Shown here piece by piece: positions 2,940 to 52,862 of a DNA stretch of 64,000 bases. A model generated the notes under the pieces. The model was not told where the DNA came from, did not search any database, and saw only the letters and a list, made by a program, of their open reading frames with translations. The stretch's first letter is position 1; every line of letters begins with the position of its first letter. Source of the stretch: Minisyncoccia bacterium (lineage in GTDB: Bacteria > Patescibacteriota > Minisyncoccia > Phycocordibacterales > UBA9973); NCBI GenBank assembly GCA_049303835.1, contig JBAQNN010000002.1, positions 94,492-158,491 on the forward strand, read 5' to 3'. Made by a program: the position numbers and the translations under genes.

Positions 2940-2984
2940 AAAAGATAAAATTCCTTAGACTATCATATATGATATACTAAAGAA

Positions 2985-3464
2985 TTAAATTTTTAGCATT
3001 CCAAAGAGTGCCACACCCAAGGCTACCGAGACATTTAGTGATTCCTTTTTTCCACGCATTGGAATCTCAGCAACAATATCGCACTTTTTTAAAATATTCT
3101 TTGGTATACCTGTCACTTCCGCCCCGACAATGAACGCGTTTCTATTTTGTAACTTTACTTTTTTGTAATCAATAGACTTTTTATCTTGTTCTATGCCAAT
3201 AATTAAATATTTTTCTTTCTTTAATTTAGTGAGTAATTGTAAAATATTTTTCTTCTGTTCCCATTTCACAAATTCTTCCGCCCCGAGCGCAGACTTTGCC
3301 AAGTCTCCTCTCTTCCTACCGAAACGATCCAGCGGCGTAGGCGTGTACCCCGTCAAATAAATCTTATCTATCCCCGCCGCATCCGCCGTGCGAAACATCG
3401 CTCCGACATTTTCCACACTTCGTATGTCATTTAATATTAAAATGTTTTTTTGATTCATAATCAT
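2985..3464 (-). CDS. SpoU/TrmH-family RNA 2'-O-methyltransferase
   Basis: 159 aa, NVGAMFRTADAAG and IPMRG..ESLNVSVA motifs of the SPOUT class. 4-nt overlap with uvrC. Confidence 0.8.
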   Translation of the reverse strand: MIMNQKNILILNDIRSVENVGAMFRTADAAGIDKIYLTGYTPTPLDRFGRKRGDLAKSALGAEEFVKWEQKKNILQLLTKLKKEKYLIIGIEQDKKSIDYKKVKLQNRNAFIVGAEVTGIPKNILKKCDIVAEIPMRGKKESLNVSVALGVALFGMLKI

Positions 3465-18845: not shown

Positions 18846-18871
18846 AAAAAACGCCCACTCGGGCGTTTTTT
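18846..18871. terminator. bidirectional rho-independent terminator
   Basis: A-run, ACGCCC (18851-18856) / GGGCGT (18861-18866), 4-nt loop, T-run. Abuts the tyrS stop. Confidence 0.75.
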
Positions 18872-20045
18872 AGTTTTGTGTAACTTTCACGAATCTTTTT
18901 TTGCCGATTTTAAGCGTTAAGTTTTCTGAAACTTTTAAATTTACATCTGTAATATTAGTATTATTGCCTAAATCATGGATGGCGTTTTCTAAAACAAGTC
19001 TGCGCCATTCCCCTTTTGAAGACAACACTTTGCTCTTTACTAAAACTTCACTCAACAATTCTCCCGCGCCGGCTTTTATCTCTTCCATTTCATCCGGAAT
19101 TTCTTTTTTCTGAAAAGTTTTTACAAAGTTTTCCTCGGCCTCTTTCGCTTTTTTCTCCCCATGATAGATTTTCACAATTTCAAAAGCCAGACGCATTTTT
19201 GCATCCCGTGGGTTTTCATTTTGAGGGATTTCTAAATCAGAAATATTTGTGCAAAGTTTAAAGTATTTAGGAATAAGCTCATCACGCAAAGCCATAATCT
19301 TACCAAACATATCATTTGGTTCATCGGTTATGTTTACGACATTTCCCCAAGAAGTGGACATTTTTCTTCCGTCCGTTCCCTCCAGCATTGAAACCGTCAA
19401 AATATCCTGTTCCGGCATCCCATAGTGTTTTTGAACTGTTCTACCGGCTTTCAAATTAAACAATTGATCAAAACCCCCTATTTCCACATCTGCTTTTACA
19501 ACAACACTATCATATCCTTGCATTAGCGGATACAAAAACTCACGCAGAGATATTTCTTCTTCTTTGTCAATTCTATCTTTGAAATTACGCCTATTGGACA
19601 TTTGTTGAACAGAAAAACTCTCAGCTAGTTCTGAGATTTCTTTAAATCCTAGTTTTCCCAACCATTTACTATTGTATTTAAATTCCGTTTTCTTTAAGTC
19701 TATAATCATGCCTAGTTGTTTGGCATAATTTTTCATATTTATTTTTATTTGTTTAGCTGTGAGCATCGGACGTTTTTCCAATTTATCTGATGGGTCTCCT
19801 ATCGTGGCCGTAAAATCTCCAACTATTAAAACGACCTTATGCCCCAGGTCTTGAAATTGTTTTAGTTTTTGCAATGGCACCGCTCTTCCTAGGTGAATTT
19901 TGGGTCCGGTTGGGTCAATACCTAGTTTTACCCGAAGAACTTTTCCTGAAAGAAGCTGTTTTTTGAGGTGTTCTTTTACAAAGACATCTTCCACTCCTCG
20001 GTTTAAAATTTCATCTATTTTTTTCTCATCCGTTATCACTTTCAT
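18870..20045 (-). CDS. tyrS: tyrosyl-tRNA synthetase
   Basis: 391 aa, GIDPTGPKIHLGRAV (HIGH-type), GDFTATIGDPS, KMSTS, C-terminal S4-like region. Confidence 0.85.
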   Translation of the reverse strand: MKVITDEKKIDEILNRGVEDVFVKEHLKKQLLSGKVLRVKLGIDPTGPKIHLGRAVPLQKLKQFQDLGHKVVLIVGDFTATIGDPSDKLEKRPMLTAKQIKINMKNYAKQLGMIIDLKKTEFKYNSKWLGKLGFKEISELAESFSVQQMSNRRNFKDRIDKEEEISLREFLYPLMQGYDSVVVKADVEIGGFDQLFNLKAGRTVQKHYGMPEQDILTVSMLEGTDGRKMSTSWGNVVNITDEPNDMFGKIMALRDELIPKYFKLCTNISDLEIPQNENPRDAKMRLAFEIVKIYHGEKKAKEAEENFVKTFQKKEIPDEMEEIKAGAGELLSEVLVKSKVLSSKGEWRRLVLENAIHDLGNNTNITDVNLKVSENLTLKIGKKRFVKVTQN

Positions 20046-35100: not shown

Positions 35101-35127
35101 AATATTTTTTATTAGAGCTGATAATTA

Positions 35128-38127
35128 CTAGTGTCCTCCGTGTCCCGCATCGTGTCCAGCATCATGTCCCCCACCAGAAGGCGCTTCCGGAGGATGTTCG
35201 TGTTTTGGTTCGGCAGATGCCTTTGGTGTGGCGTGTCCTCCGCCTCCCTTTCCTTCTTTCTTGTGGCCACCTTCTTTGTCGTGCTCTTCCTTATGGAACA
35301 CATCTTTATCTTTTCCTAGATCATATTTTTCTTTTTCAAGTCTCCTCATTTGATCTGGTGCGGTTTTTAGCCTATTTAATTGACCCAGTTCTGTTGTGGC
35401 TTTAAACGCAGCATTCTTTATTGCAGTCATTCTAGGATCGTTATCAGGAACGTTCTGCTTGACAAGCTCTTGAAGTTTTAAATCTTCCCTCTTCATAGTA
35501 AACGTGAGTTGGGCTATTCTCTTTTCTACCCCTTTCAGATTGACTTCATCTTTACCGTTTTTATTTTTTTCAACCAGTTTAGTGATTTCTCCCGAAATGT
35601 CGTCTTTTACCTCCATATTTTTTCCTTCTTCCATTATTGTAGTTAAATTTTCTAACGCCACAGTATTCTCTGTCAACCTGTCTTCTATCTTTTGTAGTTT
35701 TTTATGCCCTTTTTCAATATCAGTGGCGAATGATCCCTGGGCCGCTTCTCCCGTGCCTTTTACTCCCGTAGCTTCCTTGAATTTTCTGGTCACTCCAAAC
35801 GCTGCTGCTCCGGCTGTTGTGACCTTTGCCGCCGTAGCTATACCCGCTATACCCGCGATACCACCGATTCCAGCAAGTGCTGCTGCCACCCCAGCTTTCA
35901 TTACAACCTTCTGGGTTCTTCCTTTGTTTATATCGTCTATTGTGGGTTCTTTGTGTGCTTCTTTAAACATTCTCTCAAATCTTTCTTTGTCGAATCCACT
36001 TCCTTCTCTTGTTTGTGCTTCTTTTTCTGCATCCTTTTTTTCTTCAGCCCAGTTCTTATATTCTTTTGAATCTTTGTAATTGTTTTGGTCAACCATTCCA
36101 CCACTTGCTTTCAACAAAGAACGCGCGAGAGAAGCCGTTAATCCATTTTGTCCGAAGTTATTTATAAATTCTTTCATTCTGTCGTGATTGAGTTCATCCG
36201 CCGATTTGTATCCCTTTGGTCGCTCACCGTTTTTCTTCTTAAATTCTTCCTCACTAATTCCATTCTTCTTTGCTATCGCAAGATTACTGTCGTATTCATC
36301 TTGTTTTTTCTTTGACCATGCTTTTACTTCGTCACCACTCATACTTGTTTTATAGAGCTTTGATTCTTCTTCTAATTTCTTCTTTTGCTTTTCTTTTCGT
36401 CCTTGGTATCCTCCCTCATTTGCAGAACCCAAATTTATGCCGGTTCCGCTTACAAATTTCTTTCCAAGACCAGTGGCCCGAATATCGAAGGATGCCTTTG
36501 ATCCATAATCTGCTGTTTTTAGCATCTTTCTTGCTGCCCAACCAGTGAACCCCCTTTCTTTATTGTTTGCGGCGGTTTTTAGACCCTCACTGCTTGCAAC
36601 TTTACTCGATATCGCGCCTATTGCTTGTGTTGCCATAAGCGATGTACCTCCTGTAGCAGCACCCAAGGCGAGTCCCCCAATTAGTTTTGCACCAGTCATC
36701 AATTTTTCTCCCAAGGCGCCGGAACCCTTTTTGGCATATTCTGTAGCTTTGAGTAAGAGAATTAGAATTACTAAGGCAGGAATTATGATGAGCAAGATAG
36801 TTTCTATGAAGCTCGCGTTTGATTTAGAAATAATTTGGTCAAATATCTTTGCTTGAATCAGCATAAATATAAAATACATAAAGAACATGAAAATCGGCGC
36901 CATAAAAGCGGTTTTAAGCAAACGTTTGAACCAAGCATCCCAACCCAAATATTCAACACTACTTAAAATTGGAATGGTTGAAGACATAAAAGCAAAAGGA
37001 GAGAATATAATTAGAACAAAAAGTTCAATCATACGGCCCACAAAGCTGATGCCGGCAACAAAAAAACAATATGCGGCAAAAAACATGAGCACTCCAGCGA
37101 TGATTGTGATTCCAATCAACATACCCCCAGAAACTTCAGTTGAAGCTTTAACTCCTCCTATTTCTTGGGTTTTAAGTTTTGCAAAAAAATCTGGGGTTAA
37201 TAAACTAGTTGGATTGAATGCGTTTACCATACCACCAGCGACATCCTTTTCTCCATTTGCCGTGTTTTGATATTCCCGTACTTTACCATCTGCGTTTACT
37301 GTGTTGACTTCCATTTTATTGTAAAAAACCAAAGCCAAAACATTAGAAGTATCAATAATTACTTGAGTAAAGAACATAGAAAAGTTTATCAAGAGAGCAA
37401 TAACGATGACTTTCACTATCATTTTTTTTGCATCGTGTCCCGCTAAATCTAAAATTATTTTTATAGCGATAAAAAGGAGAATGAGTATAAAGAAAATATT
37501 TGAAAGATCTCGAACTACACCCCAAGCAGTAGGGATGAATGTAGAATTAGCAAACAATTTGCCACTAAGTGTGATGAATATTAAAACATTAAAAAAATAA
37601 GCTGATAACCACAACAAGAAAGAAGGAATAACATAAAAAAGACCATAAGATGCCTGCACAAAACATCCGGGATAAAAGGAAGAGTCACTTCCTCCTAGCC
37701 CGGTTACTCCAAATCCGCAAATATTTTTTCCAATTTCATTCTCAAATGCAGTTTTTGGGCTATTTGTATTTTGTACATCTGTTCCATCTGCCGCTGCATC
37801 AGATGCTTTTGGTCTCCACTGCCCCCCTCCAGCTTCACAAACACTTTTTGTCTTTTCAGTTACTACACTATTTGTGGTACAAATTCCGGTTACTTCGTCT
37901 TTATTGTCTGGAACCCATCTTTTAGTAAAACCCTCAAGTAGTTCAAGATCCGTACATTTTTGTTGTGTTTCAAACTTTTCTCTTCGTATTATATCGCCAT
38001 TCCTATTTGAAACTTCACAGGTTCCTGTTCCTGTTTGTGCCTCTACTTTCTCAGCCATCCCAAATACCCCGCCCAGTACGATGAGTATCAATAAATATGG
38101 TATTATTTTTTTTACTCTATTTTTCAT
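35128..38127 (-). CDS. polytopic membrane protein, VirB6/TrbL-like, with Cys-containing N-terminal ectodomain, long coiled-coil tail and His/Gly-rich C-terminus
   Basis: 999 aa: signal peptide, about 8 TM helices between aa ~150 and 480, charged coiled-coil region. Ends with GGGGHATPKASAEPKHEHPPEAPSGGGHDAGHDAGHGGH. Confidence 0.5.
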   Translation of the reverse strand: MKNRVKKIIPYLLILIVLGGVFGMAEKVEAQTGTGTCEVSNRNGDIIRREKFETQQKCTDLELLEGFTKRWVPDNKDEVTGICTTNSVVTEKTKSVCEAGGGQWRPKASDAAADGTDVQNTNSPKTAFENEIGKNICGFGVTGLGGSDSSFYPGCFVQASYGLFYVIPSFLLWLSAYFFNVLIFITLSGKLFANSTFIPTAWGVVRDLSNIFFILILLFIAIKIILDLAGHDAKKMIVKVIVIALLINFSMFFTQVIIDTSNVLALVFYNKMEVNTVNADGKVREYQNTANGEKDVAGGMVNAFNPTSLLTPDFFAKLKTQEIGGVKASTEVSGGMLIGITIIAGVLMFFAAYCFFVAGISFVGRMIELFVLIIFSPFAFMSSTIPILSSVEYLGWDAWFKRLLKTAFMAPIFMFFMYFIFMLIQAKIFDQIISKSNASFIETILLIIIPALVILILLLKATEYAKKGSGALGEKLMTGAKLIGGLALGAATGGTSLMATQAIGAISSKVASSEGLKTAANNKERGFTGWAARKMLKTADYGSKASFDIRATGLGKKFVSGTGINLGSANEGGYQGRKEKQKKKLEEESKLYKTSMSGDEVKAWSKKKQDEYDSNLAIAKKNGISEEEFKKKNGERPKGYKSADELNHDRMKEFINNFGQNGLTASLARSLLKASGGMVDQNNYKDSKEYKNWAEEKKDAEKEAQTREGSGFDKERFERMFKEAHKEPTIDDINKGRTQKVVMKAGVAAALAGIGGIAGIAGIATAAKVTTAGAAAFGVTRKFKEATGVKGTGEAAQGSFATDIEKGHKKLQKIEDRLTENTVALENLTTIMEEGKNMEVKDDISGEITKLVEKNKNGKDEVNLKGVEKRIAQLTFTMKREDLKLQELVKQNVPDNDPRMTAIKNAAFKATTELGQLNRLKTAPDQMRRLEKEKYDLGKDKDVFHKEEHDKEGGHKKEGKGGGGHATPKASAEPKHEHPPEAPSGGGHDAGHDAGHGGH

Positions 38128-41562: not shown

Positions 41563-42417
41563 CTAGTTTTTAGCAAGCATTGACCAGTCTGATAGTGACA
41601 AATCTTCCGCTCTTTTATCTCCCAAGTTTGCCGAAGACAATTTTTCGGTAGAAATCAACCCTTTTAGGTTTGAAGAAAGCTTTTTGCGCTTGTGGGCAAA
41701 GCCATTTTTCACTATTTCCCAAAATTTTTCTTCATTTATTTTATTTTTATAAAAAAATTGACGAGAAATATTTTTTATCTCAATGATTGCCGAATCAACC
41801 TTGGGCTCGGGAGAAAAATACCTCTTATTTACCTTCATAACCATTTTCGGTTCCCCATATGCCTTCACGGAGATAGAAAGGATACTCTCCTTCCCGTCTC
41901 TGGCGACTATTCTAGACGCCACCTCGTGCTGAACCATGAGCACCATACGCTCTGGCTGATTTTCTGCTGTCAAAAATTTTTTTAAAATAGCGCCAGTGAT
42001 GTTGTAAGGAATGTTGGCAATTAGCTTATAGCTACACAAAATATTCTCGGACTCACCACGCATATTCACCTGCTGGTGAATTGCTTTTCTCGCGCCGTCG
42101 CGCTGCGAAGAGGTTCGCTCTAGAACATTTTGTTTCAGGTTAAAGTTCAAAATATCTTCATTTATTAACACAAAAGCACCTAACTGAATTTGTGTGGCAA
42201 ATTTGGTTTTTAAAAACTCAAAAAGTTCTCTATCTTTTTCTACTGCTACTACAGTGGCTCCGGTCTGTAGAAGTTTTTCTGTTAGCGCTCCCTTGCCCGG
42301 ACCAATCTCTAGGACAACATCACCAGGTTTTATTTCTCCCGCCTCGATAATCTTCTTGAGAGCTAGCTCAGATTTCAAAAAATTCTGTCCAAGTGATTTT
42401 TTTGCTTTGTGTATCAT
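41563..42417 (-). CDS. rsmA: 16S rRNA (adenine1518/1519-N6)-dimethyltransferase RsmA/KsgA
   Basis: 284 aa, SLGQNFL, VLEIGPGKGALT, ANIPYNIT motifs. Confidence 0.9.
   Translation of the reverse strand: MIHKAKKSLGQNFLKSELALKKIIEAGEIKPGDVVLEIGPGKGALTEKLLQTGATVVAVEKDRELFEFLKTKFATQIQLGAFVLINEDILNFNLKQNVLERTSSQRDGARKAIHQQVNMRGESENILCSYKLIANIPYNITGAILKKFLTAENQPERMVLMVQHEVASRIVARDGKESILSISVKAYGEPKMVMKVNKRYFSPEPKVDSAIIEIKNISRQFFYKNKINEEKFWEIVKNGFAHKRKKLSSNLKGLISTEKLSSANLGDKRAEDLSLSDWSMLAKN
42036..42133. repeat. in-frame GC-rich hairpin insertion inside rsmA (homologous to the pcrA copy)
   Basis: Closing stem ACAAAAT.TTCT / AGAA.ATTTTGT. Hairpin ATTCACC-TGCT-GGTGAAT (42064-42081) and hairpin GCGC-CGTC-GCGC (42092-42103). 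Confidence 0.7.
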
Positions 42418-43955
42418 ATTGAAAGAATATTTTTAAGTTCATACAAATTTTTTGGGAAGTAACTTTTTATGGTTGGATCCATTAATTTTTCTACTGGAGA
42501 AAAATTATCTGTTAGAATTATATGATTTTCCTCTTTTAAAGATTGGGTAGAAATTATTTTGTCTGATAAAAAGTTATTTTCTCCCGACAACAATTTTTGT
42601 CTGAGCTCTGTTTCATTTATCGGAAGTTTTCCGTTTATACCAACCAACACTATGTTTTGTGGAAGTTCTCTCTCTGCACCAAAAGCGAATATGTAAAAAT
42701 TTGGGAAACTAGTTTTAAAAGTATTTAGTACACTATGAGTAAAAATAGATTTTTCTCCCGAGATTGAGCCGATAAAATTTATTGCATAGATTCCACCCTC
42801 ATTTAGTCTTTCTTTTACCTTACTATTCCATTCTTTTGTTAATAAATACCAAGGTACAGATATAAATGAATTATATGCATCACCAAATATTACATCATAT
42901 TTTTCTGTGTTTTTATTTATGACATTTTTTGCATCTCCTACGATTGTTTTTATATTGTATTTTTTTAGATCAAAAAAAGCATTGCCGATATTGATCATTT
43001 CTGGGTCTATTTCAACAACCGAAACACTCGCATCTTTATAATAATTCTCAAAATGTTTTGGCATTGTATATGCCCCAGCACCAATGACGAGAATATTCTT
43101 TATTTTTTCTTTTAAGCTAGCAAAGACAGGATATATTTCCGGGTAATATTCAATTTTTTTTTGGGGTTCAATGCTGTGAAAATCAAAATCCAAAACTAAA
43201 ATCCTAGAATCCCCATATGAAGAAAAATTGGTATCAACGACTTTTGCATCGTAATAGTTTGTTTCTTTTTCAAATACTATCTTAGGGTTTGATGTCTCCC
43301 GCTGTGTGAAATATAAAATTGTTGGCACTAGAATTATTGTCAAAATAAAAATCAAAAGCACTTTTCTATTTTTAAAGGCAAAAATTCCTCCTACCAAAAA
43401 TAATATGATAGACATCAACCAAATTGCTTCCTTGCTTCCGATATGAGAGATAAAGAAAAATCCGGTCAAAAATACACCGAGGATGCCACCGAATGACCAA
43501 GCAAAGGATAATGTGCCGTACTCGCTGCCGATTTTTGAAAAGTCGTTGGCGAATCTTTTTAAAATTATCGGCTGGATGAGTCCTATCGCCAGTGTCGGAA
43601 GCAGGAAGAGATATATAGATAAATATAAATTTAATTTTAAGATAGAATCCGAAGAATTTGTGATAAAATCTGTATTTTTTGCCAATAGTGGAATTATAGA
43701 AACTAGTATTGCCGAAGCGAGGAATGCCAAAGGAAGTGATTTGTCCCCGTCTGTTTTGTCTGCTATCTGCCCGCCGACATAACTACCAAAGGCTAGGCCA
43801 AGTAGAGTTATACCTATAACCGATGTCCAAGTAAATACCGAGGAACCGATGATAGGGGCGACTATTCTGCTTGAAATTAATTCAACTACCATCACCGAAA
43901 ATCCAGCAAGAAAAGAACTTAGTACGTAGAGTGATTGTTTGTTGAGAATTTGCAT
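42414..43955 (-). CDS. fused polytopic membrane domain + spermidine synthase-like methyltransferase-fold protein
   Basis: 513 aa, about 7 N-terminal TM helices. C-terminal VLVIGAGAYTMPK...VVEIDPEM...GDA pattern of spermidine synthase-like proteins. Confidence 0.65.
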   Translation of the reverse strand: MQILNKQSLYVLSSFLAGFSVMVVELISSRIVAPIIGSSVFTWTSVIGITLLGLAFGSYVGGQIADKTDGDKSLPLAFLASAILVSIIPLLAKNTDFITNSSDSILKLNLYLSIYLFLLPTLAIGLIQPIILKRFANDFSKIGSEYGTLSFAWSFGGILGVFLTGFFFISHIGSKEAIWLMSIILFLVGGIFAFKNRKVLLIFILTIILVPTILYFTQRETSNPKIVFEKETNYYDAKVVDTNFSSYGDSRILVLDFDFHSIEPQKKIEYYPEIYPVFASLKEKIKNILVIGAGAYTMPKHFENYYKDASVSVVEIDPEMINIGNAFFDLKKYNIKTIVGDAKNVINKNTEKYDVIFGDAYNSFISVPWYLLTKEWNSKVKERLNEGGIYAINFIGSISGEKSIFTHSVLNTFKTSFPNFYIFAFGAERELPQNIVLVGINGKLPINETELRQKLLSGENNFLSDKIISTQSLKEENHIILTDNFSPVEKLMDPTIKSYFPKNLYELKNILSI

Positions 43956-43962
43956 ACATTCA

Positions 43963-45990
43963 TTATAAGTAAATCGTTTTTATTCCGCTAGTTTCGCCTT
44001 CTTTTTCTAATAAATCTGCTGGGATGTCGGAAATAAATTCCGAAGGAGCGTTTATTTGGCGTGAGCCGAAAATGGTGCGGAAATTTGCAAAGGATAAAAA
44101 TAATTTTTCTTTCGCGCGAGTAAGGGCTACATAAAATAGTCGGCGTTCCTCTTCTCTATCCTCGCCTGTTTGTCTCTCGTTCTGTCTTTCGTGCGGAAAG
44201 AGTCCGTCTTCCAGCCCTGTGACAAAAACGTATTTAAACTCAAGGCCCTTTGAAGCATGGACAGTCATGAGTTTGACGGCATTTATCGTTTCTTTTTTTT
44301 CTGTTTGGATCATTAACGAATCTTGGTCACTCGCCAGAGCTCCATCTTCTAAAAGCTTTTCTATGCCTGCACCGTTTTCTAAATTATCGTATTTCAAAGC
44401 CAAGGTAGCAAGCTCTTTGATGTTTTCCAGTCTTTCTATGTCCTCCTCTCCCCCACCCAAAAGCTCTTGTTCAATGCCGGATTTTTTGACCACAAACTTT
44501 ATCACTTCACTCGCTTTGGCGGTTTTTATTTTTTCTTTTATTTCTTCCAGAATTTGATAAAAATTGTTTATTTTCACTCTGACTTTTATTGGTAGCCCCC
44601 CGATTTCATTAGCAAAAATTTTTACTAAAGTGACCTTACCTATTCCTCGCGCCGGGAAATTGATAATTCTTTTTATATCCGAGAGGCTGTCAGGGTTTAA
44701 GGCGGCACGTAAATATGCGAGGGTGTCTTTGATTTCTTTTCTTTCAAAAAACTTTACTCCGAGGACCTGATAAGGAATATTGTAGCGGAGCATCGCTTCT
44801 TCCAGTGCGCGGGATTGAAAGTTTGCGCGATACAAGACCGCAATCTCTGAGTGTGAGCCTAGAGAAGAATGTTGATCCATAATTTCTAAAATTTTTGTCG
44901 CCACAAACTCTGCTTCGTCGGTTTCATCCAACGCTTCGTAGAGTCCTATTTTATCGCCCACTACATTTTCAGTAAATAAATTTTTATCCGGGCGGTATTT
45001 GTTTTTTTTGATTATCTCATTGGCCGCTTCCAAAATATTCTTTGTAGAACGATAATTTTGTTCTAGTAAGATTATTTTTGCATTCGGATAATCTTTTTCA
45101 AAACTCAAAATATTTTTTAAATTTGCTCCGCGCCAGGAATAAATATTCTGATCCGCATCTCCCACTACGCAGATATTTTTGTTGTTTTCGGAAAGCAGTT
45201 TGGACATCAAATATTGCACTTCGTTGGTGTCTTGATATTCGTCTACATGGATGAAGTCCCATTTTTCTTGATAAATTTTCCTAATTTCTGCATTTTCTTT
45301 TAATAATTTTGTCGCTTTCAAAAGCAAGTCGTCAAAATCAAGCGAATTTTCCTTCATCTTTTGTTTTTCATACAAATTCCACACCTGGGCCACTATTTTC
45401 CCTAGAGTGTCACTAGCCCCTTCCGCATAATCGGATAAGTGCACGAATTTCCCCTTTTCGCGCGAGATTATATTTTTTATTTTTTTTGGATCGTATTGTT
45501 TCGGATCTATGCCAAGCTCTTTTAAGATATTTTTTATCAAAGTCGTCGCATCGCCCTCATCTAAAATTGTGAAATATTTTGTGAGTCCGAGCAATTTAGC
45601 ATTTTGTTTTATTATATAAACTCCGAGTGAGTGAAATGTAGAAACGAAAGGCGCAGAAAATACTTCTCGCCTGGGGTCGCTGTCTCCACGTGCTCGTGGA
45701 GCGCTCCCTCTCGGCTCGTCAGCCTGCGAGAGACCCCACTCAAGAAGATTTTCTGCGCCCAGGGCAGACATGATTCTCTCCCGCATTTCTTTCGCTGCTT
45801 TGTTTGTGAAAGTCACAGCCAAAATCTTCTCCGGAGCGATTCCATTTTTTATCAAATTTACGATTCTGTGGGTGATAGTCTTGGTTTTTCCTGCTCCTGC
45901 TCCGGCGACGACAAGAAGCGGACCGTCCATATGAAGCGCCGCCTCTTTTTGTTCGTTATTTAGCCCCGCCAAGTGCTCCAAATTAGTCAC
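43963..45990 (-). CDS. pcrA: ATP-dependent DNA helicase PcrA/UvrD (GTG start)
   Basis: 675 aa, motif I AGAGAGKTKT, Ia, II VDEYQDTN, TFHSLG, VHASKGLEF. Confidence 0.9.
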   Translation of the reverse strand: MTNLEHLAGLNNEQKEAALHMDGPLLVVAGAGAGKTKTITHRIVNLIKNGIAPEKILAVTFTNKAAKEMRERIMSALGAENLLEWGLSQADEPRGSAPRARGDSDPRREVFSAPFVSTFHSLGVYIIKQNAKLLGLTKYFTILDEGDATTLIKNILKELGIDPKQYDPKKIKNIISREKGKFVHLSDYAEGASDTLGKIVAQVWNLYEKQKMKENSLDFDDLLLKATKLLKENAEIRKIYQEKWDFIHVDEYQDTNEVQYLMSKLLSENNKNICVVGDADQNIYSWRGANLKNILSFEKDYPNAKIILLEQNYRSTKNILEAANEIIKKNKYRPDKNLFTENVVGDKIGLYEALDETDEAEFVATKILEIMDQHSSLGSHSEIAVLYRANFQSRALEEAMLRYNIPYQVLGVKFFERKEIKDTLAYLRAALNPDSLSDIKRIINFPARGIGKVTLVKIFANEIGGLPIKVRVKINNFYQILEEIKEKIKTAKASEVIKFVVKKSGIEQELLGGGEEDIERLENIKELATLALKYDNLENGAGIEKLLEDGALASDQDSLMIQTEKKETINAVKLMTVHASKGLEFKYVFVTGLEDGLFPHERQNERQTGEDREEERRLFYVALTRAKEKLFLSFANFRTIFGSRQINAPSEFISDIPADLLEKEGETSGIKTIYL
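45650..45759. repeat. in-frame GC-rich hairpin insertion inside pcrA (about 29 extra codons between motif Ia region and TFHS)
   Basis: 12-nt perfect terminal inverted repeat GGCGCAGAAAAT / ATTTTCTGCGCC, extended by CTTCT/AGAAG and TGGGGTC/GACCCCA. Hairpin CTCCACG-TGCT-CGTGGAG (45684-45701) and hairpin GGCT-CGTC-AGCC (45713-45724). Confidence 0.75.
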
Positions 45991-46341: not shown

Positions 46342-48669
46342 CTACTCTTTAATTTTTAATTGGTCTAATTTTCCAATCTCCGCTGCTTTTTGTAATGCCC
46401 GCGCCATATACTCTCCGTTTGTTTCAGCCCTGAGGTGGAGAGAGGCCAAACCTCTTGGTTTGATGCCCGTGATTGTGGCGAGTTTATTAAGATAAATTAA
46501 TTTAGGATCGGAATCTTCACCTATCTTACCAAAATGAACCCAGTTTTTAGCCTTTAAATTACTGAAGCTTTCCCATTCGTCTCTGTCTTTAAATATATGT
46601 TCTACGTTGTGTCCGTGAACTTTCAAAGCCCGAACCAAAGTTTCTCCATCTAGATGAAAAGGGTTGTTTGCAAACTCTGGATGATGATTCAAAAAGTCAT
46701 TCTCGTCTGGAGAAAGTCCTGGGAAGTAGTACTGTGGGCCACCCATATTCATACCAGGGAATCTAGAATCATAATAATAATTTGTTCCACCTGGTCCGCG
46801 TCCTGGTTCTACCGCTCCTCCGACGCCTATCCTTGTGCCTGTCCTGATTGTGTTGTTTGGTGTGCTCATTTTTTCTAGTACTTTTGCCCTGGTGGCTTCA
46901 ACGTCAGTATGCGTATCTACACGAGATACTTCTACTTTTTCTGGAAAATTTTCCGTTTCAAATTTGTGTACTGGAGGGTAGGCTTTGTCTCCCAAGTGAA
47001 AAGATTCTGGCGTTTCAGAGTATGGGTTTCCTTTAATATTAAAAGGTGAACTTGTGGTCTCGGGATGAGAAGCTGAAGCTACTGTCTCAACTGTGGGTGA
47101 CTTCGGATGTTTATATTCGTATTTTTCTGTGTCTTCCTCAAATTGTGACCCAGAACCATGTTCTTCTACCAGTCCACTTCCGACTTTTAGTTCATCAACT
47201 TTTAATTCTCCATTTTCTAATTTAAGCTGATATGCCACTTCATTTGCCGGCCTTACCCATATCTCTTCACCCGTAACCTTATCTACGTAACCATGTTCTA
47301 AGGCGACTCTGTGCGCTGCTCCACCAGAAAATTCGTACAAAGCTTTTGTGTCATTCACATCTCCTTTAAAACCTAGGCTCTTTGCGAGCTCTGTATTTTC
47401 CACTATTTGTCTTCTAAACGCGTGTTCTATTCCTTCCCCTTTTTGTATAATTGCTGTCTCGTCTGGTTTGATAGTTTCTGTTGCGCCAGTCGTGGCGGAT
47501 TCAGTCTTTATGCTTTCCGGTGTTTCGGTGTCAATTTCTGTTTTTAGATGTCCGGGCTTTGTTTCAGGAGTATCCAAGTGACCAGCGGAGGGATGTAATA
47601 TTTGACCCATTCCATAACCTGTTCCTATTGATGCCGCTCCGCCGACTACCATACTAGCCATAGCTTTTCCTATTAATCTGTTTCTTTTGCTTTTTTGTTC
47701 CTTCTCTAATATGTCAGCGTAAGTTTTTTTAACTTCAGATAAATTTCCTTCTCCAAAGAACTCTGCCAGCTTTTGTTTTGCGAGTTCTCTTTCTTCTTCT
47801 GATTTGTCTTTAAAAATTAAATCATAAAGTTTTGCTGTTCCTTGTCCGGCACCTAGCCCGACGAACGTACGTGTTGTTTTTATACCTAAATAAGCAAGAC
47901 TTCCTCCAGCTGCGGCTACTGAGCTAGGTAAAACTGTAAAAGCAAATCCCGCTGATAATGCGAAAGACATAGCAATTTTTGTGGGTCTTTTTTGCACCAT
48001 ATACCAATCCAAAAGTTTTTTTGCTAGATTTTTTTCTTTTGGTGGCAGATTTTCTGCTTTTAAAGCATTTAGTTTTGTTTGCTCATCAATTATAACTTTA
48101 GTGAAAATTTCATTTTTTGTCTTTTTTGCTGAGAACATTGCGTTTCCGTATTCTACTGTAGCTTTTTCGTATTCTTTTTCTAACTCTTTTAACTCCGGAG
48201 GAATTTCAGAGTCTTCTATTTTCGCTCCGAAAATAAATCTTTTAGCACGAGTAAATTTTTCAGCTCCGGCCAAAAACTTCTTGTATTCTTCCGCATATTT
48301 TGCTCTAGCATCATCTAGTCTTTTTTCTACATCTAATATTGGGGTGGGTGCTACTTCTGTTGGGGTAATTTTTAAACCTTCTTTTTTCTCCCGGATTGTA
48401 TCTTTTAAGACGCTTATTTTATTATCAACAGTTTCTTTTGCGGAGGAGAAAACTTCAGTTAGATCAGAAAAAGACTCAAATTTTGATGATTGGACGTTCA
48501 TTTCTTCCACTATTTTTTTTACCTCTTCCGTACCGGCACCTCTGGTCAAAGCCTCATTCATTTGATCTAAAACATATAGGTAGTGTCTCGTTACGTCATC
48601 AAACTCAATCAGCCTTTTAATAAGTAAGTCCTTATCTTCCCCGACCCCCGCACTTGTTTCTTGTTTCAT
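46342..48669 (-). CDS. large hypothetical protein with central TM segments
   Basis: 775 aa: coiled-coil N-terminal part, 2-3 TM helices around aa 225-350, unknown C-terminal domain. Confidence 0.55.
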   Translation of the reverse strand: MKQETSAGVGEDKDLLIKRLIEFDDVTRHYLYVLDQMNEALTRGAGTEEVKKIVEEMNVQSSKFESFSDLTEVFSSAKETVDNKISVLKDTIREKKEGLKITPTEVAPTPILDVEKRLDDARAKYAEEYKKFLAGAEKFTRAKRFIFGAKIEDSEIPPELKELEKEYEKATVEYGNAMFSAKKTKNEIFTKVIIDEQTKLNALKAENLPPKEKNLAKKLLDWYMVQKRPTKIAMSFALSAGFAFTVLPSSVAAAGGSLAYLGIKTTRTFVGLGAGQGTAKLYDLIFKDKSEEERELAKQKLAEFFGEGNLSEVKKTYADILEKEQKSKRNRLIGKAMASMVVGGAASIGTGYGMGQILHPSAGHLDTPETKPGHLKTEIDTETPESIKTESATTGATETIKPDETAIIQKGEGIEHAFRRQIVENTELAKSLGFKGDVNDTKALYEFSGGAAHRVALEHGYVDKVTGEEIWVRPANEVAYQLKLENGELKVDELKVGSGLVEEHGSGSQFEEDTEKYEYKHPKSPTVETVASASHPETTSSPFNIKGNPYSETPESFHLGDKAYPPVHKFETENFPEKVEVSRVDTHTDVEATRAKVLEKMSTPNNTIRTGTRIGVGGAVEPGRGPGGTNYYYDSRFPGMNMGGPQYYFPGLSPDENDFLNHHPEFANNPFHLDGETLVRALKVHGHNVEHIFKDRDEWESFSNLKAKNWVHFGKIGEDSDPKLIYLNKLATITGIKPRGLASLHLRAETNGEYMARALQKAAEIGKLDQLKIKE

Positions 48670-49043: not shown

Positions 49044-50159
49044 TTGACGTCCTCCCTGCTATTTGGGGCCCTTTTTGTGCCTACTCGGGGGGTAGAGGCT
49101 GGAATCCTTTCCTCCCTCTCTTCTATGTTTGTGGGGGATCCAGTGTATGCACAATCTGATCCAAATATAATAAAGCCACCCCAGCCAGGCAGTAATTCTC
49201 AGAATATTGCTCTCTTGCAAGCCAACGTCTCTTCTGCCTCTGTTTTGGAAGATAAAAGTATTAATAAAGATGAGGTTTTAGATATGATAACAATAGACAC
49301 CACAAACAGTATTATTTCTGATAATGCTCTTTTGCCATCTCTGGCCGGCTTTGTCGGGGCTGATGGCATGGATGCAAATACAGATGTTTCTTTTGAAGAT
49401 ATCAGTGTTTATGTAGTAAGAAAGGGTGATTCCTTGTCCCAAATAGCTGATATGTTTGAAGTTTCTGTAAATACCATACTTTGGGCCAATGATATGAAAA
49501 AAGGCGATAAATTAGTAGAGGGAGACACACTTTTTATATTACCCGTCTCTGGACTAAAACATGTTGTAACTAAAGGACAAACCCTGAAGAGTATCGCCCA
49601 GAAATACAATGCGGATATTGGGGATATAGTCAGTTTCAATGGAATTACAGAGGATACTAAATTGGTAATTGGAGATGAATTGATCATTCCAGGCGGAGAA
49701 ATGTCTGTGGATGGGCCAGTCAAAACGACCACCGCGAAAGGTGTTGTGGCTACTGCCAAGACTTCACTGAAGAGTATTGCAGGGTACTTTATAAATCCGG
49801 TTCTAGGGGCCATCAAAACCCAAGGACTACACGGCAAAAATGCTGTTGACCTGGCTGCTCCGATAGGTACGCCGATACGTGCGGCAGCTTCCGGGACAGT
49901 TCTTCTTGCTCGTATGGGATGGAATGGAGCTTACGGAAACATGGTCATCATTCAACACCCAAATGGTACTAAAACTCTTTACAGTCATTTATCCAAGATT
50001 GCAAGCACGACAGGACAAAGTGTTTCTCAGGGAGACACTATCGGCTATGTCGGGAATTCAGGAAGAGTCAGAGCGGCCAAAGGAGGAAATGGTGCGCACT
50101 TGCACTTTGAAGTTTATAACGCCAAAAATCCCGGGGCTGATCGCTCCTGGAAGCAATAA
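49044..50159 (+). CDS. secreted LysM-LysM-M23 peptidoglycan endopeptidase (TTG start)
   Basis: 371 aa, two LysM repeats (YVVRKGDSLSQIA..., HVVTKGQTLKSIA...). M23 motifs HGKNAVDLAAPIGTPI and GAHLHFEV. Confidence 0.85.
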   Translation: MTSSLLFGALFVPTRGVEAGILSSLSSMFVGDPVYAQSDPNIIKPPQPGSNSQNIALLQANVSSASVLEDKSINKDEVLDMITIDTTNSIISDNALLPSLAGFVGADGMDANTDVSFEDISVYVVRKGDSLSQIADMFEVSVNTILWANDMKKGDKLVEGDTLFILPVSGLKHVVTKGQTLKSIAQKYNADIGDIVSFNGITEDTKLVIGDELIIPGGEMSVDGPVKTTTAKGVVATAKTSLKSIAGYFINPVLGAIKTQGLHGKNAVDLAAPIGTPIRAAASGTVLLARMGWNGAYGNMVIIQHPNGTKTLYSHLSKIASTTGQSVSQGDTIGYVGNSGRVRAAKGGNGAHLHFEVYNAKNPGADRSWKQ

Positions 50160-50166
50160 AAGATTT

Positions 50167-50919
50167 TTATTCTAAATACAAAAGCGCAGTCATTGCGAGA
50201 ACTCCGATGATGACAGCTACTATCTGCAAAGCTGAATGCTCTGCTTTTTTTGTTTTATGAAGTTCTGGAATCAAATCTGCCACAGCTACATAGATAAATC
50301 CACCGGCGGCAATTGGCAGAATCCACAAACTGAAAGCCTCTCCTGCTTCTCCTAAAACAAAAGCCAAAATCATTCCCAAGATGGCGCAAAGTCCAGAAAG
50401 AAAATTAAGAAAGAGTGCACGTGATTTGGTGTAGCCAGAATGAAGCAACACAGCAAAGTCCCCTATCTCTTGCGGAATCTCGTGCAAGATCACTGCAATG
50501 GTAGTAGCTATACCCACTGGTACGCTTACAAGGAAACTAATTCCAATGATGATGCCGTCTATAAAATTGTGAACCCCGTCAGAAAAAAGAATGAGCTTTC
50601 CTACCGGATGAATTTCTTCCGTATCTTCGCCGTGGTGGTGCCAGTGGAGAAATTTTTCCAAGATAAAAAATATTAAGACCCCGACGATTACGAGGATACT
50701 CACGTGGGTGGCGTTGGCGATATGTTCAAAGGCTTCCGGAATGAGATGAATAAAAGCATCTCCTAGAAGTGCGCCGACGGCCAGGGAAATAAAAACAAAA
50801 ATATATTTTCGCAAGAGATCTTCTCTGATTGAAAGTGCAAAAACTCCAATCAAGGAAATTAAGCTCACTATCACCACACTGACAAAAGAATAAATGTATG
50901 TGCTTATCATGCTATTCAT
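50167..50919 (-). CDS. ZIP-family divalent metal transporter (ZupT-like)
   Basis: 250 aa, 8 TM helices, HNFIDGIIIG and HEIPQEIGDF motifs. Confidence 0.85.
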   Translation of the reverse strand: MNSMISTYIYSFVSVVIVSLISLIGVFALSIREDLLRKYIFVFISLAVGALLGDAFIHLIPEAFEHIANATHVSILVIVGVLIFFILEKFLHWHHHGEDTEEIHPVGKLILFSDGVHNFIDGIIIGISFLVSVPVGIATTIAVILHEIPQEIGDFAVLLHSGYTKSRALFLNFLSGLCAILGMILAFVLGEAGEAFSLWILPIAAGGFIYVAVADLIPELHKTKKAEHSALQIVAVIIGVLAMTALLYLE

Positions 50920-50968
50920 CGTATATTAAATAAAAATAGTTTGCAAAAAAATTAAGAGAAATTAGAAA

Positions 50969-51002
50969 GGGGCGGGGTGTCGATTTCTCGACTCCCCGCC
51001 CC
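50969..51002 (-). terminator. GC-rich rho-independent terminator of the small GC-rich ORF
   Basis: GGGGCGGGGtGTCGA-tttc-TCGACtCCCCGCCCC. In minus-strand sense it is followed by a U-rich tract (CTTTCTAATTTCTCTTAATTTTTTTT). Confidence 0.7.
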
Positions 51003-51026
51003 GATGGGTGGCTGTGGCGTGTCAGA

Positions 51027-51188
51027 TCAGAAGAGCTTCTTGACGATCTCCCTGAAGCTCTCCAGGTTGGAGAGCGCGAGAAGGGTCGCGACGACGATGG
51101 TGAGCACCCCGAGCGAGATGCCCAGCATGGTCTTGGTGGGGTTTCGCTTCGGTGAAGGGTTGTCTTCATCCAGTCCGAGCATGGTCAT
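51027..51188 (-). CDS. 53-aa single-pass membrane protein encoded by a ~58% GC ORF (compositionally foreign)
   Basis: Own translation: MTMLGLDEDNPSPKRNPTKTMLGISLGVLTIVVATLLALSNLESFREIVKKLF. SD AAAGGAG lies 6 nt upstream, with its own promoter and terminator. It is below the track cutoff; the track shows only two long out-of-frame ORFs here. Confidence 0.55.
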   Translation of the reverse strand: MTMLGLDEDNPSPKRNPTKTMLGISLGVLTIVVATLLALSNLESFREIVKKLF

Positions 51189-51210
51189 GTTTTTCTCCTT
51201 TCCGAATTTG

Positions 51211-51238
51211 ATACTACAATAAAGACGCCTTTTGTCAA
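51211..51238 (-). promoter_or_regulatory. sigma70-like promoter (TTGACA, 16 nt, TAGTAT on minus strand) of the GC-rich small ORF
   Basis: Read from the reverse complement: ccTTGACAaaaggcgtctttattgTAGTATc. Confidence 0.45.
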
Positions 51239-51252
51239 GGATAGATTTTTTG

Positions 51253-51323
51253 TGCGGGATGGGAGAATCGAACTCCCAACCTCAGTTTGGAAAACTGACG
51301 TTTTACCATTAAACTAATCCCGC
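51253..51323 (-). tRNA. tRNA-Gly (anticodon UCC), no encoded CCA
   Basis: Hand-folded: acceptor GCGGGAT/ATCCCGC, anticodon arm TCAGT-TTTCCAA-ACTGA, T arm GGGAG-TTCGATT-CTCCC. Confidence 0.9.
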
Positions 51324-51377
51324 ATCTGTCTTCTAACTATATCTTTTATTTTATATTTTTTCAACCAAACTTCAGTA

Positions 51378-52307
51378 TTATTTATTTACTATAAATTCCA
51401 CCAGAACGAAAATCAGCCAGAAAATAAATAGTAGATATCCTTCTTTTTTTGAAATGGTACGGCCCGAGCGCATAAACCGAAACAAAATAAAAGAAGCTAC
51501 CACCATAAATATTCCGGTTACATAAATTATTTTTTGAGGAAAGAAAAATGGTCTTACCAATGCGAGGATTCCGACGACGATAGTCGCGTCCGCCAATACT
51601 GTTCCTAGCAAGTCCCCGACTGCCAGAGAATCATCATTTTTACGTAGAGACTTTAAAGAAAAGAAAAATTCCGGCATAGTGGTTCCCAGTCCTACGATAA
51701 ACATTCCTACTAGTATCGGACTTATTCCCAAATAATAAGCGAGAGAGGATGCCGAAGATACTGTAAAATGAGAACCAATCAACAAGATAGACATGCTAAA
51801 TATTAGCATTAATGAATTTTTACGGTAATTATTTGTTTTGTCTGAAGGAGTCTCTCCGTCAATTCCATTTTTTAAAGCTAAATAGTAAAATATTCCTCCA
51901 GTAATGATGAGCGTCAGGCCCTCAATGCGGGAAAAATATCCGTCTAAACCCAATATGAGTGGCAACAAAAGTAAAAATGGATAGACATTGTAATTTTTGA
52001 GAATTTTACTTTCAATTTTTAATCCCCTTCCGGTTAGTAAAATTAATAGAGCAAAAATCAAAGTTAGGTCCGCCACATTTGAACCAAAAAGTACGCCGAG
52101 ACCGAAAGACGGTATTCCTTCTAGTGCAGAATTTATGGCTATAAAAGTCTCAGGTAGAATTGAGATGATAGCGATGATGATAAACCCTACCGTGTATTTA
52201 GAGAGTCTAAAACTCTCTGCTAATTGTGCAGCGTACCTGGTAGCCATAGTCGCACCTTTTATAACCATAAAAAGGGCTACCGTGAAAATAAAGATATTGT
52301 TAAGCAT
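51378..52307 (-). CDS. Ca2+/Na+ antiporter (CaCA/YrbG family)
   Basis: Two alpha-repeat regions (GLGVLFGSNVADL, GDLLGTVLADAT), about 10 TM helices. The track start at 52376 overlaps tRNA-Pro, so I use the internal ATG MLNNIFIF at 52307. Confidence 0.8.
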   Translation of the reverse strand: MLNNIFIFTVALFMVIKGATMATRYAAQLAESFRLSKYTVGFIIIAIISILPETFIAINSALEGIPSFGLGVLFGSNVADLTLIFALLILLTGRGLKIESKILKNYNVYPFLLLLPLILGLDGYFSRIEGLTLIITGGIFYYLALKNGIDGETPSDKTNNYRKNSLMLIFSMSILLIGSHFTVSSASSLAYYLGISPILVGMFIVGLGTTMPEFFFSLKSLRKNDDSLAVGDLLGTVLADATIVVGILALVRPFFFPQKIIYVTGIFMVVASFILFRFMRSGRTISKKEGYLLFIFWLIFVLVEFIVNK

Positions 52308-52336
52308 AAAATTGTGCGTATTGATCCTCTCTTCGT

Positions 52337-52407
52337 TCGGGCCGCTGGGAATTGAACCCAGTCTAAATGCTCCCAAAGCACTTGTACTACCGGTATACTA
52401 CGGCCCG
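52337..52407 (-). tRNA. tRNA-Pro (anticodon UGG), no encoded CCA
   Basis: Hand-folded: acceptor CGGGCCG/CGGCCCG (C1-G72), anticodon arm AGTGC-TTTGGGA-GCATT, T arm CTGGG-TTCAATT-CCCAG. Confidence 0.9.
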
Positions 52408-52433
52408 GATTACTTAAAAACTAAATGAGTATA

Positions 52434-52862
52434 TCATAAAATGATGTCGCTGACCACCTTTACTCTGGCTTTTTTATTTTTTAAATCCAGATATACAACC
52501 AGGAGATCCACTTGCCACTCTTTACCTTCGGAGATTTTTTCGGACAAAAGATATGTTTGAATTGTCCGTGACATTCGTTTTAGTTTCCAGGGATGCATAT
52601 TATCTTCTGGTCTGTAGTTGTTGTCTGTTGTTACATGTGAAACATTGTCTAGCGTTACACGGGAAACACTCTTTACTTCTATAAAATACAGCCTGTTATT
52701 TTTTTCAGCTATTATGTCTATCTCCCCCCATTTTTTAGTATAATTTCTTTCCAATATTGAAAAACCGTGTTTCACGAGAAACTTTTCAGCTATGTTTTCC
52801 CCAATTTCTCCTATCTTTTGGGTTTCTGATGTAAATTTTTTAGGCATTTTAATAAGTTTCAT
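52434..52862 (-). CDS. YraN-family (UPF0102) endonuclease with an internal 2 x 24-nt tandem repeat
   Basis: GEIGENIAEKFLVKHGFSILERNY...GEIDIIA...YFIEVKS. Start ambiguous (GTG 52871, ATG 52862 or ATG 52847). Confidence 0.75.
   Translation of the reverse strand: MKLIKMPKKFTSETQKIGEIGENIAEKFLVKHGFSILERNYTKKWGEIDIIAEKNNRLYFIEVKSVSRVTLDNVSHVTTDNNYRPEDNMHPWKLKRMSRTIQTYLLSEKISEGKEWQVDLLVVYLDLKNKKARVKVVSDIIL

Follow-up and report, generated by a model that had tools for sequence, protein, structure and literature searches.

Small membrane proteins such as KdpF, MgtS, AcrZ, MntS, and MgrB modulate transporters or sensors, and bacteria that are poor in Shine–Dalgarno (SD) motifs can still carry exceptional SD-led genes, such as rpsU/bS21 in Flavobacteriia, which implies a dedicated initiation regime. 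Bacteria of the candidate phyla radiation (CPR) are uncultured, and their rules of gene expression are largely unknown. Here we describe a micro-gene of 53 codons in a 64-kb stretch of contig JBAQNN010000002.1 (the window), which comes from Nomurabacteria-like Parcubacteria (candidate phyla) and is AT-rich, with an overall G+C content of 38.1%. The micro-gene lies in a slot between a tRNA-Gly(UCC) gene and a gene for a ZIP-family metal transporter, and the unusual features of this locus are a synonymous G+C content that is maintained, SD motifs in a gene set that is otherwise SD-poor and leaderless, and a hypervariable slot with conserved flanks. We suggest, with a probability of roughly 0.6, that this autonomous unit is one allele of a lineage-restricted hypervariable slot that keeps its G+C and its SD and encodes an envelope micro-protein. 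As such, the slot is a compact, testable case of gene expression in the CPR.

The micro-gene and its predicted product

We compared the window with 160 related loci, designated by L numbers, that were collected with the ZIP protein as query. The parts of the slot in the window are the following, in order of transcription:

51252..51323, minus strand: tRNA-Gly(UCC), upstream boundary of the slot (ARAGORN; Rfam RF00005, 73.7 bits)
51233..51238, minus strand: −35 hexamer TTGACA of the micro-gene promoter (promoter scan)
51211..51216, minus strand: −10 hexamer TAGTAT of the micro-gene promoter (promoter scan)
51195..51201, minus strand: SD AAAGGAG, 6 nt before ATG 51188 (read from the sequence)
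51027..51188, minus strand: open reading frame (ORF) of the micro-gene, 53 codons plus stop (NCBI MFZ3011611.1, WA060_01255; G+C at third codon positions, GC3, 0.85)
51069..51128, minus strand: predicted single transmembrane (TM) helix, codons 21–40, MLGISLGVLTIVVATLLALS (Kyte-Doolittle 17-residue maximum 2.43)
50969..51002, minus strand: intrinsic-terminator hairpin GGGGCGGGGAGTCGA-GAAA-TCGACACCCCGCCCC (folding)
50945..50968, minus strand: T-rich terminator tail, TTTCTAATTTCTCTTAATTTTTTT (sequence)
50918..50946, minus strand: putative ZIP promoter TTGCAA-17 nt-TACGAT, 7 nt from the ATG, a leaderless layout (read from the sequence)
50167..50910, minus strand: ZIP-family metal transporter, downstream boundary of the slot (Pfam PF02535, E = 2.9e-50)

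The ORF at 51027–51188 (minus strand), with the translation MTMLGLDEDNPSPKRNPTKTMLGISLGVLTIVVATLLALSNLESFREIVKKLF, departs strongly in composition from its surroundings. It contains 94 G+C in 162 nt (58.0%, with 52/37/85% at codon positions 1/2/3), exactly the hand count in the original prediction, which had also singled out this GC-rich patch amid AT-rich DNA. A sliding-window check agreed, as the patch is the top GC peak of the 64 kb at both the 162-nt and 220-nt scales, reaching 0.636 at the former, about 4.3 standard deviations (sd) over the window mean. The 50 long ORFs of the window have a mean GC3 of 0.349 (sd 0.055, maximum 0.447), and none of their 1,646 54-codon chunks has a GC3 of 0.70 or more (top value 0.685); both composition and codon usage are therefore atypical in the micro-gene (GC3 0.85 vs 0.35 ± 0.055). 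Other GC peaks of the window (5998–6167, 15562–15794, 35113–35305, 35718–35904, and 45617–45843) lie inside ordinary long genes and were rejected as further members.

The micro-gene is real and was previously annotated by NCBI, which lists its product as a hypothetical protein in a Minisyncoccia (Parcubacteria) metagenome-assembled genome. The statement that it had been missed by the ORF track holds for the original reader's own track only; both a mechanical ORF list and NCBI include it. The longer overlapping ORFs at 50912–51169 (minus strand) and 50977–51222 (plus strand) had been taken for GC artifacts, a view that we share: multiple frames are open in every allele, and we rejected both ORFs as genes, regarding them as open-frame by-products of high GC3.

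The promoter, SD, ATG at 51188, 53 codons, and hairpin terminator that had been read as one expression unit were each recovered, at the positions listed above. The promoter (TTGACA-16 nt-TAGTAT, 51238..51211, minus strand) matches the consensus at 10 of 12 positions in the promoter scan, and its 28 nt occur as a single copy in the window. The tRNA-Gly(UCC) gene is 63 nt upstream of the ATG and 100% identical in L002, L003, and L066. Downstream, a conserved CATCG (51002–51006) precedes the terminator hairpin, which consists of 9 + 5 bp flanking one A/A mismatch with a GAAA loop and is followed by an interrupted U-tract. Its folding energy of −31 kcal/mol (z = −4.6) was equalled by 0 of 200 shuffles, and a GC hairpin followed by UUUCUAAUUUCUCUU on the transcribed strand is the makeup of a Rho-independent terminator. 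The terminator scan missed this hairpin because of its internal mismatch; the L003 copy was called by the same scan. The segment at 50918..50946 appears to be the ZIP gene's own promoter; it falls below the 9/12 threshold of the promoter scan and so was not called, and it is conserved in all carriers as TTGCAAA..TTTTTATTTAATATACGAT.

Several lines of evidence show that the ORF is coding. The window peptide has two orthologues, P0002 (62 aa, 67% identity) and P0004 (54 aa, 46% identity), and all indels among the three are in frame. Period-3 G+C structure is present in all alleles, with GC3 far exceeding GC2, and every slot allele encodes a TM segment, with a Kyte-Doolittle maximum of 2.3–3.4 in 11 of 13. 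With in-frame indels, a TM segment, and a conserved start, the proposal that the patch holds a gene for a small membrane protein, equipped with a promoter, SD, and terminator of its own, is borne out. Searches of 10 alleles against Pfam-A, NCBIfam, PHROGs, and PADLOC returned nothing meaningful, with only sub-threshold noise from the TM segment.

The predicted product is a micro-protein that spans the membrane once. An AlphaFold2 model has one helix (residues 17–52), with a predicted local distance difference test score (pLDDT) of about 80 over residues 21–40 and the short C-tail modeled as an extension of the TM helix. The N-terminus is modeled as non-helical at low confidence (pLDDT 50–57), and the N-terminal ~20 residues are polar, with an acidic-x-P-x-P-K motif. 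Charge distribution favors an N-in orientation in most alleles, and some C-tails are rich in Thr, Pro, and Ala as read by eye; on present sequences, N-in would be the most likely topology. We also observed a 15-nt direct repeat inside the micro-gene (51121–51135 and 51175–51189; CAAGACCATGCTGGG and CATGACCATGCTCGG on the coding strand), which encodes ‘TMLG’ at residues 2–5 and 20–23 and is duplicated in the L002 allele as well. The repeat hints at one of two things: the N-terminal segment originated as a copy of the beginning of the TM segment, or translation can also start, with no SD, at Met21.

A hypervariable slot in related lineages

The genes for P0002 and P0004 both lie between tRNA-Gly(UCC) and ZIP, with the same promoter, SD, and GC hairpin. 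The cassette was also found in L003, L083, L066, L004, L084, L011/L012, L091, L163, and L164, and L085, where the locus is incomplete, is probably a further carrier; overall, the cassette precedes ZIP in at least 10 independent related Nomurabacteria-like assemblies. Its order is promoter, SD, one to three GC-rich single-TM ORFs (two in L003, three in L066), GC hairpin, and ZIP promoter. Conserved across carriers are the promoter, the 5′ untranslated region (UTR), the CATCG with hairpin and T-tail, and the ZIP promoter. The slot promoter, TTGACAAAAGGCnTTTTAnTTGTAGTAT, is conserved in L001, L002, L003, and L083 and near-identical in L011/L012 and L066, and the terminator tail and ZIP promoter are 82–95% identical among carriers. 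A GC hairpin with a T-run is present in all 10 carriers; stem sequences differ and yet all pair, so the changes are compensatory. The L003 allele resembles the window family over its N-terminal 24 residues only (HHalign E = 2.9e-4), and the L002 and L003 alleles differ greatly in their similarity to the window allele though their ZIP genes are equally close to that of the window.

The slot is not filled in every relative. In the non-carriers L005/L006, L016, and L018, the last base of tRNA-Gly(UCC) is position 3000 and the first of ZIP 3001, and because the tRNA abuts ZIP there, the cassette is inserted DNA, about 340 bp long in the window and longer in multi-ORF alleles. Where the upstream flank has been rearranged, by an insertion sequence (IS) in L083 and by inverted tRNAs in L011/L012 and L084, the cassette remains adjacent to ZIP. 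In a neighbor-joining (NJ) tree built from the ZIP gene alone, most carriers group in one main clade, and L011/L012 and L091 fall outside it as two outliers.

The micro-gene and its neighbor evolve very differently. Among the window, L002, and L001, which we compared for rates and third-position changes, nonsynonymous divergence (dN) of the micro-gene is 0.25–0.50 and synonymous divergence (dS) 0.34–0.81 (dN/dS 0.6–0.7), and that of the adjacent ZIP gene is 0.03–0.08 and 1.0–1.4 (dN/dS about 0.03–0.06). The micro-gene dN is thus about 10-fold that of ZIP, and some alleles cannot be aligned at all. Despite this turnover, GC3 is 0.55–0.87 across all 13 distinct slot ORFs, vs 0.31–0.44 in ZIP, and G↔C changes make up 16 of the 19 lineage-specific substitutions at third positions, the rest being two GC→AT and one AT→GC. 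Third positions that turn over and yet stay G or C point to selection or biased conversion for G+C itself, and, beside a ZIP gene with saturated dS, they do not fit a decaying foreign gene. C-ending codons (81%, vs 33% in window genes) and G-ending codons (73%, vs 29%) are both preferred, so the codon bias is unlike tRNA adaptation. Synonymous-site G+C in the slot is about 45–50 points over the genomic level across lineages with saturated ZIP dS, and we suggest that it would be held there by selection or biased gene conversion and would not be a relic of recent transfer.

We made further observations on the flanks of the slot and its counterparts. The 3′ end of tRNA-Gly(UCC) lies 0–2 nt before the ZIP start in L005/L006, L016, L018 (2929–3003), and L090 (100–176), and the ZIP mRNA of such non-carriers would become leaderless through tRNA 3′ processing, resembling ‘tRNA punctuation’. 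L083 (200–1160) has no tRNA genes before the cassette and, in their place, an ORF with a run of N that by eye resembles an IS transposase; the cassette is still attached to ZIP. An element of about 90–130 nt with the core GAAAGGnTTTTCG...CGAAAAnCACCTGGCTAYGTARTAGCC occurs in L004 (~121–245), L005/L006 (~2758–2880), and L010 (~2674–2820), in each case immediately downstream of a tRNA gene (Gly-UCC, Pro-UGG, or Val-UAC) whose last 17–20 nt are duplicated at the end of the element. The element has no Rfam family match and does not occur in the window; an unknown RNA and a small insertion element that targets tRNA ends are both candidates. In L086 and L087 (~2600–3000; ZIP 75% identity), an upstream frame encodes HHHHFVC..C, Fur/Zur-like by eye, a motif that suggests possible Zur control of ZIP in this group.

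The slot neighbors in the window are ZIP, an M23/LysM peptidase, and a Na/Ca exchanger. The ZIP start at 50910 is the ATG common to L001 and L002, to which the protein is 87% and 94% identical, respectively. The mechanical start of the Na/Ca-exchanger ORF (51378–52376, minus strand) is a TTG inside tRNA-Pro(UGG) (52337–52407); the true start is probably a downstream ATG (MLNNIFIF...), and the overlap with the tRNA an artifact of ORF calling.

Shine–Dalgarno use and a possible wider class of GC-rich genes

We found that a GGAG core stands 5–10 nt before the start of all 13 slot ORFs, including those with TTG or GTG starts, and also before the internal ORFs of the L003 and L066 operons. A strong SD 5-mer precedes one of 50 window genes, at or under the chance rate of about 4%, and nine of 277 ordinary genes in the related loci. 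In contrast, a −10-like box, TAnn(A/T)T, ends 4–10 nt before the start in 20 of 50 window ORFs vs about 10% expected by chance; this excess near starts indicates that leaderless mRNAs are widespread in the window, and the earlier description of the neighbors as leaderless and SD-less agrees with both counts. Starts of this type include 1496, 9755, 20085, 55151, and 58609, often with TGnTATAAT, and genes of this type include 11560–14016, 18870–20045, 42414–43955, and 46342–48669, all on the minus strand. A full-text literature search returned no paper mentioning ‘leaderless’ together with Parcubacteria or Patescibacteria.

The GC-rich, structured mRNA of the micro-gene would rely on pairing between SD and anti-SD, because such an mRNA could not use the leaderless or AU-rich initiation of the other genes. 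If so, the lineage is predicted to keep CCUCC in its 16S rRNA, the 3′ end of which was not found in the sequence examined (the window and the relatives' loci). Should the 16S rRNA of this lineage instead be without an anti-SD, the conserved SDs of the slot become a real puzzle.

Three further GC-rich genes, each encoding a protein with a signal peptide, were detected in the related loci:

L083, 4129–4929, plus strand: GC-rich signal-peptide gene (266 aa, GC3 0.85)
L099, 2206–3447, plus strand: GC-rich signal-peptide gene (413 aa, GC3 0.80)
L021, 2342–2862, plus strand: GC-rich signal-peptide gene (GC3 about 0.76)

An SD-like purine-rich motif precedes each start: GAAAGGAAGGA in L083, AGAGG in L099, and AGAGAGGAAACC in L021. 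A promoter and a GC hairpin terminator can be read at the L083 and L021 genes, and the L021 gene ends in the same CATCG-hairpin-TTTCAATTT as the slot. The L099 protein is 32% identical to the L083 protein; the former had no tblastn match in phage and plasmid collections, and the latter no Pfam family above the cut-off. No second member of such a class was found in the window. When 922 kb from relatives were scanned stringently for small TM ORFs that are GC-rich and SD-led, the slot was the only source, apart from one extra match that was rejected as an antisense artifact inside the L083 GC-rich gene.

A class of GC-rich, SD-led envelope genes is therefore a lead and not a result, and the micro-protein may belong to such a small set in these relatives. 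Tentatively, and with more doubt than confidence, we can imagine two expression regimes, in which the bulk of genes are AT-rich, SD-less, and largely leaderless, and a few envelope genes (the slot, L083, L099, and L021) are GC-rich and SD-dependent, with G+C maintained and with a strong promoter and a GC hairpin as their bounds. Rapid protein turnover in this set would fit diversifying pressure at the cell surface or at the interface with a host. If general, this would amount to a specialized translation regime for fast-evolving envelope proteins, and a part for these proteins in contact between symbiont and host is plausible. A variant in which the SD and high-GC codons are tuned for expression in a high-GC host cell, and not in the symbiont, is far less likely, at the level of a few percent.

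Alternative readings and described systems

Whether the patch is resident or imported bears directly on this interpretation. The original prediction had raised a horizontal acquisition beside tRNA-Gly, for example from a high-GC source; if recent, such a transfer would leave GC-rich codons and the SD as donor traits that have not been ameliorated. Such an import would explain a GC3 of 0.85 vs 0.35 for the genome, an SD foreign to the genome's usual initiation style, an insertion between tRNA and ZIP relative to non-carriers, and a patchy distribution on the ZIP tree, and relatives do contain other GC-rich genes. However, at least 10 related assemblies, with ZIP dS saturated (≥1), have a filled slot, third positions have changed many times and are still G or C, and conservation extends to the promoter, 5′UTR, tail, and ZIP promoter, all of them AT-rich and of native style. 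No donor was found either: there is no homologue beyond the slot among 1.84 billion representative proteins, where an exhaustive phmmer search returned as true relatives the two slot orthologues P0002 and P0004 (P0003 and P0005 were rejected as low-complexity false positives). A k-mer homologue search with the window peptide returned only itself, nothing but slot alleles came from a k-mer-indexed search of 5.8 billion clustered sequences or from profiles built on 3 and on 10 alleles, a genome-contig scan with the window peptide found no relative, and an exact-sequence contig-index look-up found nothing. Viral, phage, and plasmid collections were likewise without a match in viral-contig scans (promoter pattern; A1 profile) and in blastn of the patch against plasmid and phage records. 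As for tRNA-linked integration, the insertion between the tRNA and the next gene stands, but 50000–52500 contains no direct, att-like repeat of the tRNA 3′ end, and the neighbors include no integrase. The original prediction had held that equally GC-rich homologues in all related AT-rich genomes would speak against import; such homologues, or slot equivalents of like GC3, occupy the same place in at least 10 assemblies, though not in every relative. We thus regard recent import as improbable; a transfer long ago, to an ancestor of the carrier lineages, is possible, and a GC island in an AT-rich genome need not mean recent horizontal transfer. Similarly improbable is a recombination hot-spot at which alleles are swapped between strains via their flanks and GC-biased gene conversion raises G+C incidentally, with no selection on composition. 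The conserved flanks around a hypervariable core, the unequal similarity of the L002 and L003 alleles to that of the window despite equally close ZIP genes, and the patchy phyletic pattern agree with this, as does the tolerance of changes between G and C with removal of A and T, which selection predicts equally. Yet the GC3 shift that such conversion produces in bacteria is a few percent, not one from 35% to 85%, and the process leaves unexplained both the strict co-occurrence with the SD and the SD-like motifs on the GC-rich signal-peptide genes of L083, L099, and L021. Sharp GC boundaries in a metagenome-assembled source could additionally suggest a chimeric assembly, a concern of the original prediction that recurrence puts to rest almost entirely: the same architecture is present in independent Logan, ENA, JGI, and NCBI assemblies, and the patch boundaries coincide with functional signals.

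On the side of function, the possible main rival of an envelope micro-protein would be a type I toxin-antitoxin (TA)-like module, in which a membrane-damaging peptide is held in check by an antisense RNA or by a 5′/3′ RNA that folds back. The peptide is small and hydrophobic (53 aa, one TM helix, Kyte-Doolittle 2.43), lineage-specific, and fast-evolving, and lies in an intergenic slot; small TM ORFs stand in tandem in L003 (two) and L066 (three); and genomes of the group carry TA modules, such as ParE/YafQ in L163. Additionally, the full-length transcript folds with z = −4.4, and its minimum free energy (MFE) structure has the SD region paired to the terminator tail. This whole-transcript signal, however, is due to the terminator hairpin and not to the ORF: ORF-only folding against dinucleotide-matched shuffles gives z = −1.7 for the window and −1.9 to +0.6 for most alleles, as expected from composition, and we rejected a specific mRNA structure within the ORF. 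With a near-consensus promoter and a strong, canonically spaced SD, a toxin would kill the cell if unrepressed; PADLOC, NCBIfam, and Pfam have no matching family; and the T-run of the hairpin is on the sense strand only. The antisense RNA expected of such a module found no backing in a consensus promoter scan, itself a weak negative: on the opposite strand, within the cassette and next to it, no promoter was called in the window, L001, or L003, and the single weak promoter-like site of L002 (9/12) is not conserved, so that no antisense promoter is shared by the four. To our knowledge, neither conserved GC3 enrichment nor a fixed position beside ZIP is a feature of known type I toxin families, and we consider a toxin unlikely, if somewhat less so than import or conversion. 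A holin, also proposed, fared no better: the window peptide has no PHROG match, no phage context, and no viral-contig match, other slot alleles have only weak matches (E ≥ 0.003) to PHROGs of unknown function, and the nearby M23/LysM gene is a conserved chromosomal neighbor that is also present in non-carriers. Lastly, the patch could be a structured noncoding RNA (ncRNA) or a cis-regulatory leader of ZIP (riboswitch or attenuator) in which the ORF is incidental, since a GC-rich island in an AT-rich genome, directly upstream of a metal transporter and ending in a terminator hairpin, is a classical ncRNA signature, and the transcript z-score could be read in the same way. This is very unlikely given period-3 G+C with GC3 far over GC2 in all alleles, an SD and start codon conserved at canonical spacing, in-frame indels, a TM helix encoded by every allele, ORF-only z-scores that are not significant, and a conserved ZIP promoter downstream of the terminator. 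Rfam 15 at gathering score left the patch unmatched, with only the tRNA passing, and the best non-tRNA matches of an E-value scan reached 12–24 bits vs thresholds of 40–70 bits.

We therefore favor the slot with an envelope micro-protein, and propose the following for its working. The unit would be transcribed from a near-consensus sigma-70-type promoter, translated from a canonical SD, and closed by a strong intrinsic terminator, which would insulate the downstream ZIP promoter from strong transcription of the micro-gene and tRNA; the cassette would also re-promote ZIP. The micro-protein may act in the cytoplasmic membrane with its N-terminus inside, as a weakly constrained envelope or transporter-associated protein, the latter association resting on conserved adjacency to ZIP.

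Several points weigh against this proposal. The alleles of L012, L083, L004, and L084 share the architecture but have no detectable sequence similarity with the window peptide, so that their membership in one family is partly inferred from position and flanks. Carriers are not monophyletic on the single-gene ZIP tree, so that the slot has been lost, exchanged laterally, or both in the course of its history. Since non-carriers have ZIP without the slot, the linkage between the two may be nothing more than historical. A dN/dS of 0.6–0.7 is noisy over ~52 codons and fits very weak constraint at the protein level. GC-rich genes without an SD exist in relatives (L007), which means that these genomes do take up GC-rich DNA. 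Finally, the anti-SD motif was undetected in about half of Parcubacteria 16S genes (Tsurumaki et al., PMC9297842), and in a lineage without it the SD inference fails.

Compared with described systems, the slot resembles each in part. Like tRNA-adjacent horizontally acquired islets, it has an atypical composition and is inserted immediately 3′ of a tRNA gene, but it measures only about 340 bp from the tRNA 3′ end to the ZIP ATG, has no integrase or repeat, carries AT-rich native-style signals in many related lineages with no donor, and remains unameliorated in composition though ZIP dS is saturated. With the type I toxins Hok, Fst, TisB, and TxpA/BsrG it shares a length under 60 aa, one TM helix, and its own intergenic promoter and terminator, along with the narrow range, poor conservation, occasional tandem copies, and stable mRNA of such peptides; unlike with them, no antisense promoter was found for the slot, and its strong SD is not consistently sequestered. 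As with KdpF, MgtS, AcrZ, MntS, and MgrB, a single-pass protein of 30–60 aa is encoded beside a transporter gene, and the linkage to ZIP is kept despite rearrangements of the other flank (L083, L084, and L011/L012). It differs from these in the strong terminator and separate promoter between micro-gene and ZIP, in a sequence that is hardly conserved, and in ZIP orthologues of non-carriers that function without the slot. The likeness to rpsU/bS21 in Flavobacteriia is that an SD-poor genome keeps a strong SD on very few genes; there the phylum is another and the products are unrelated, whereas in the slot the SD is coupled to a GC-rich coding sequence.

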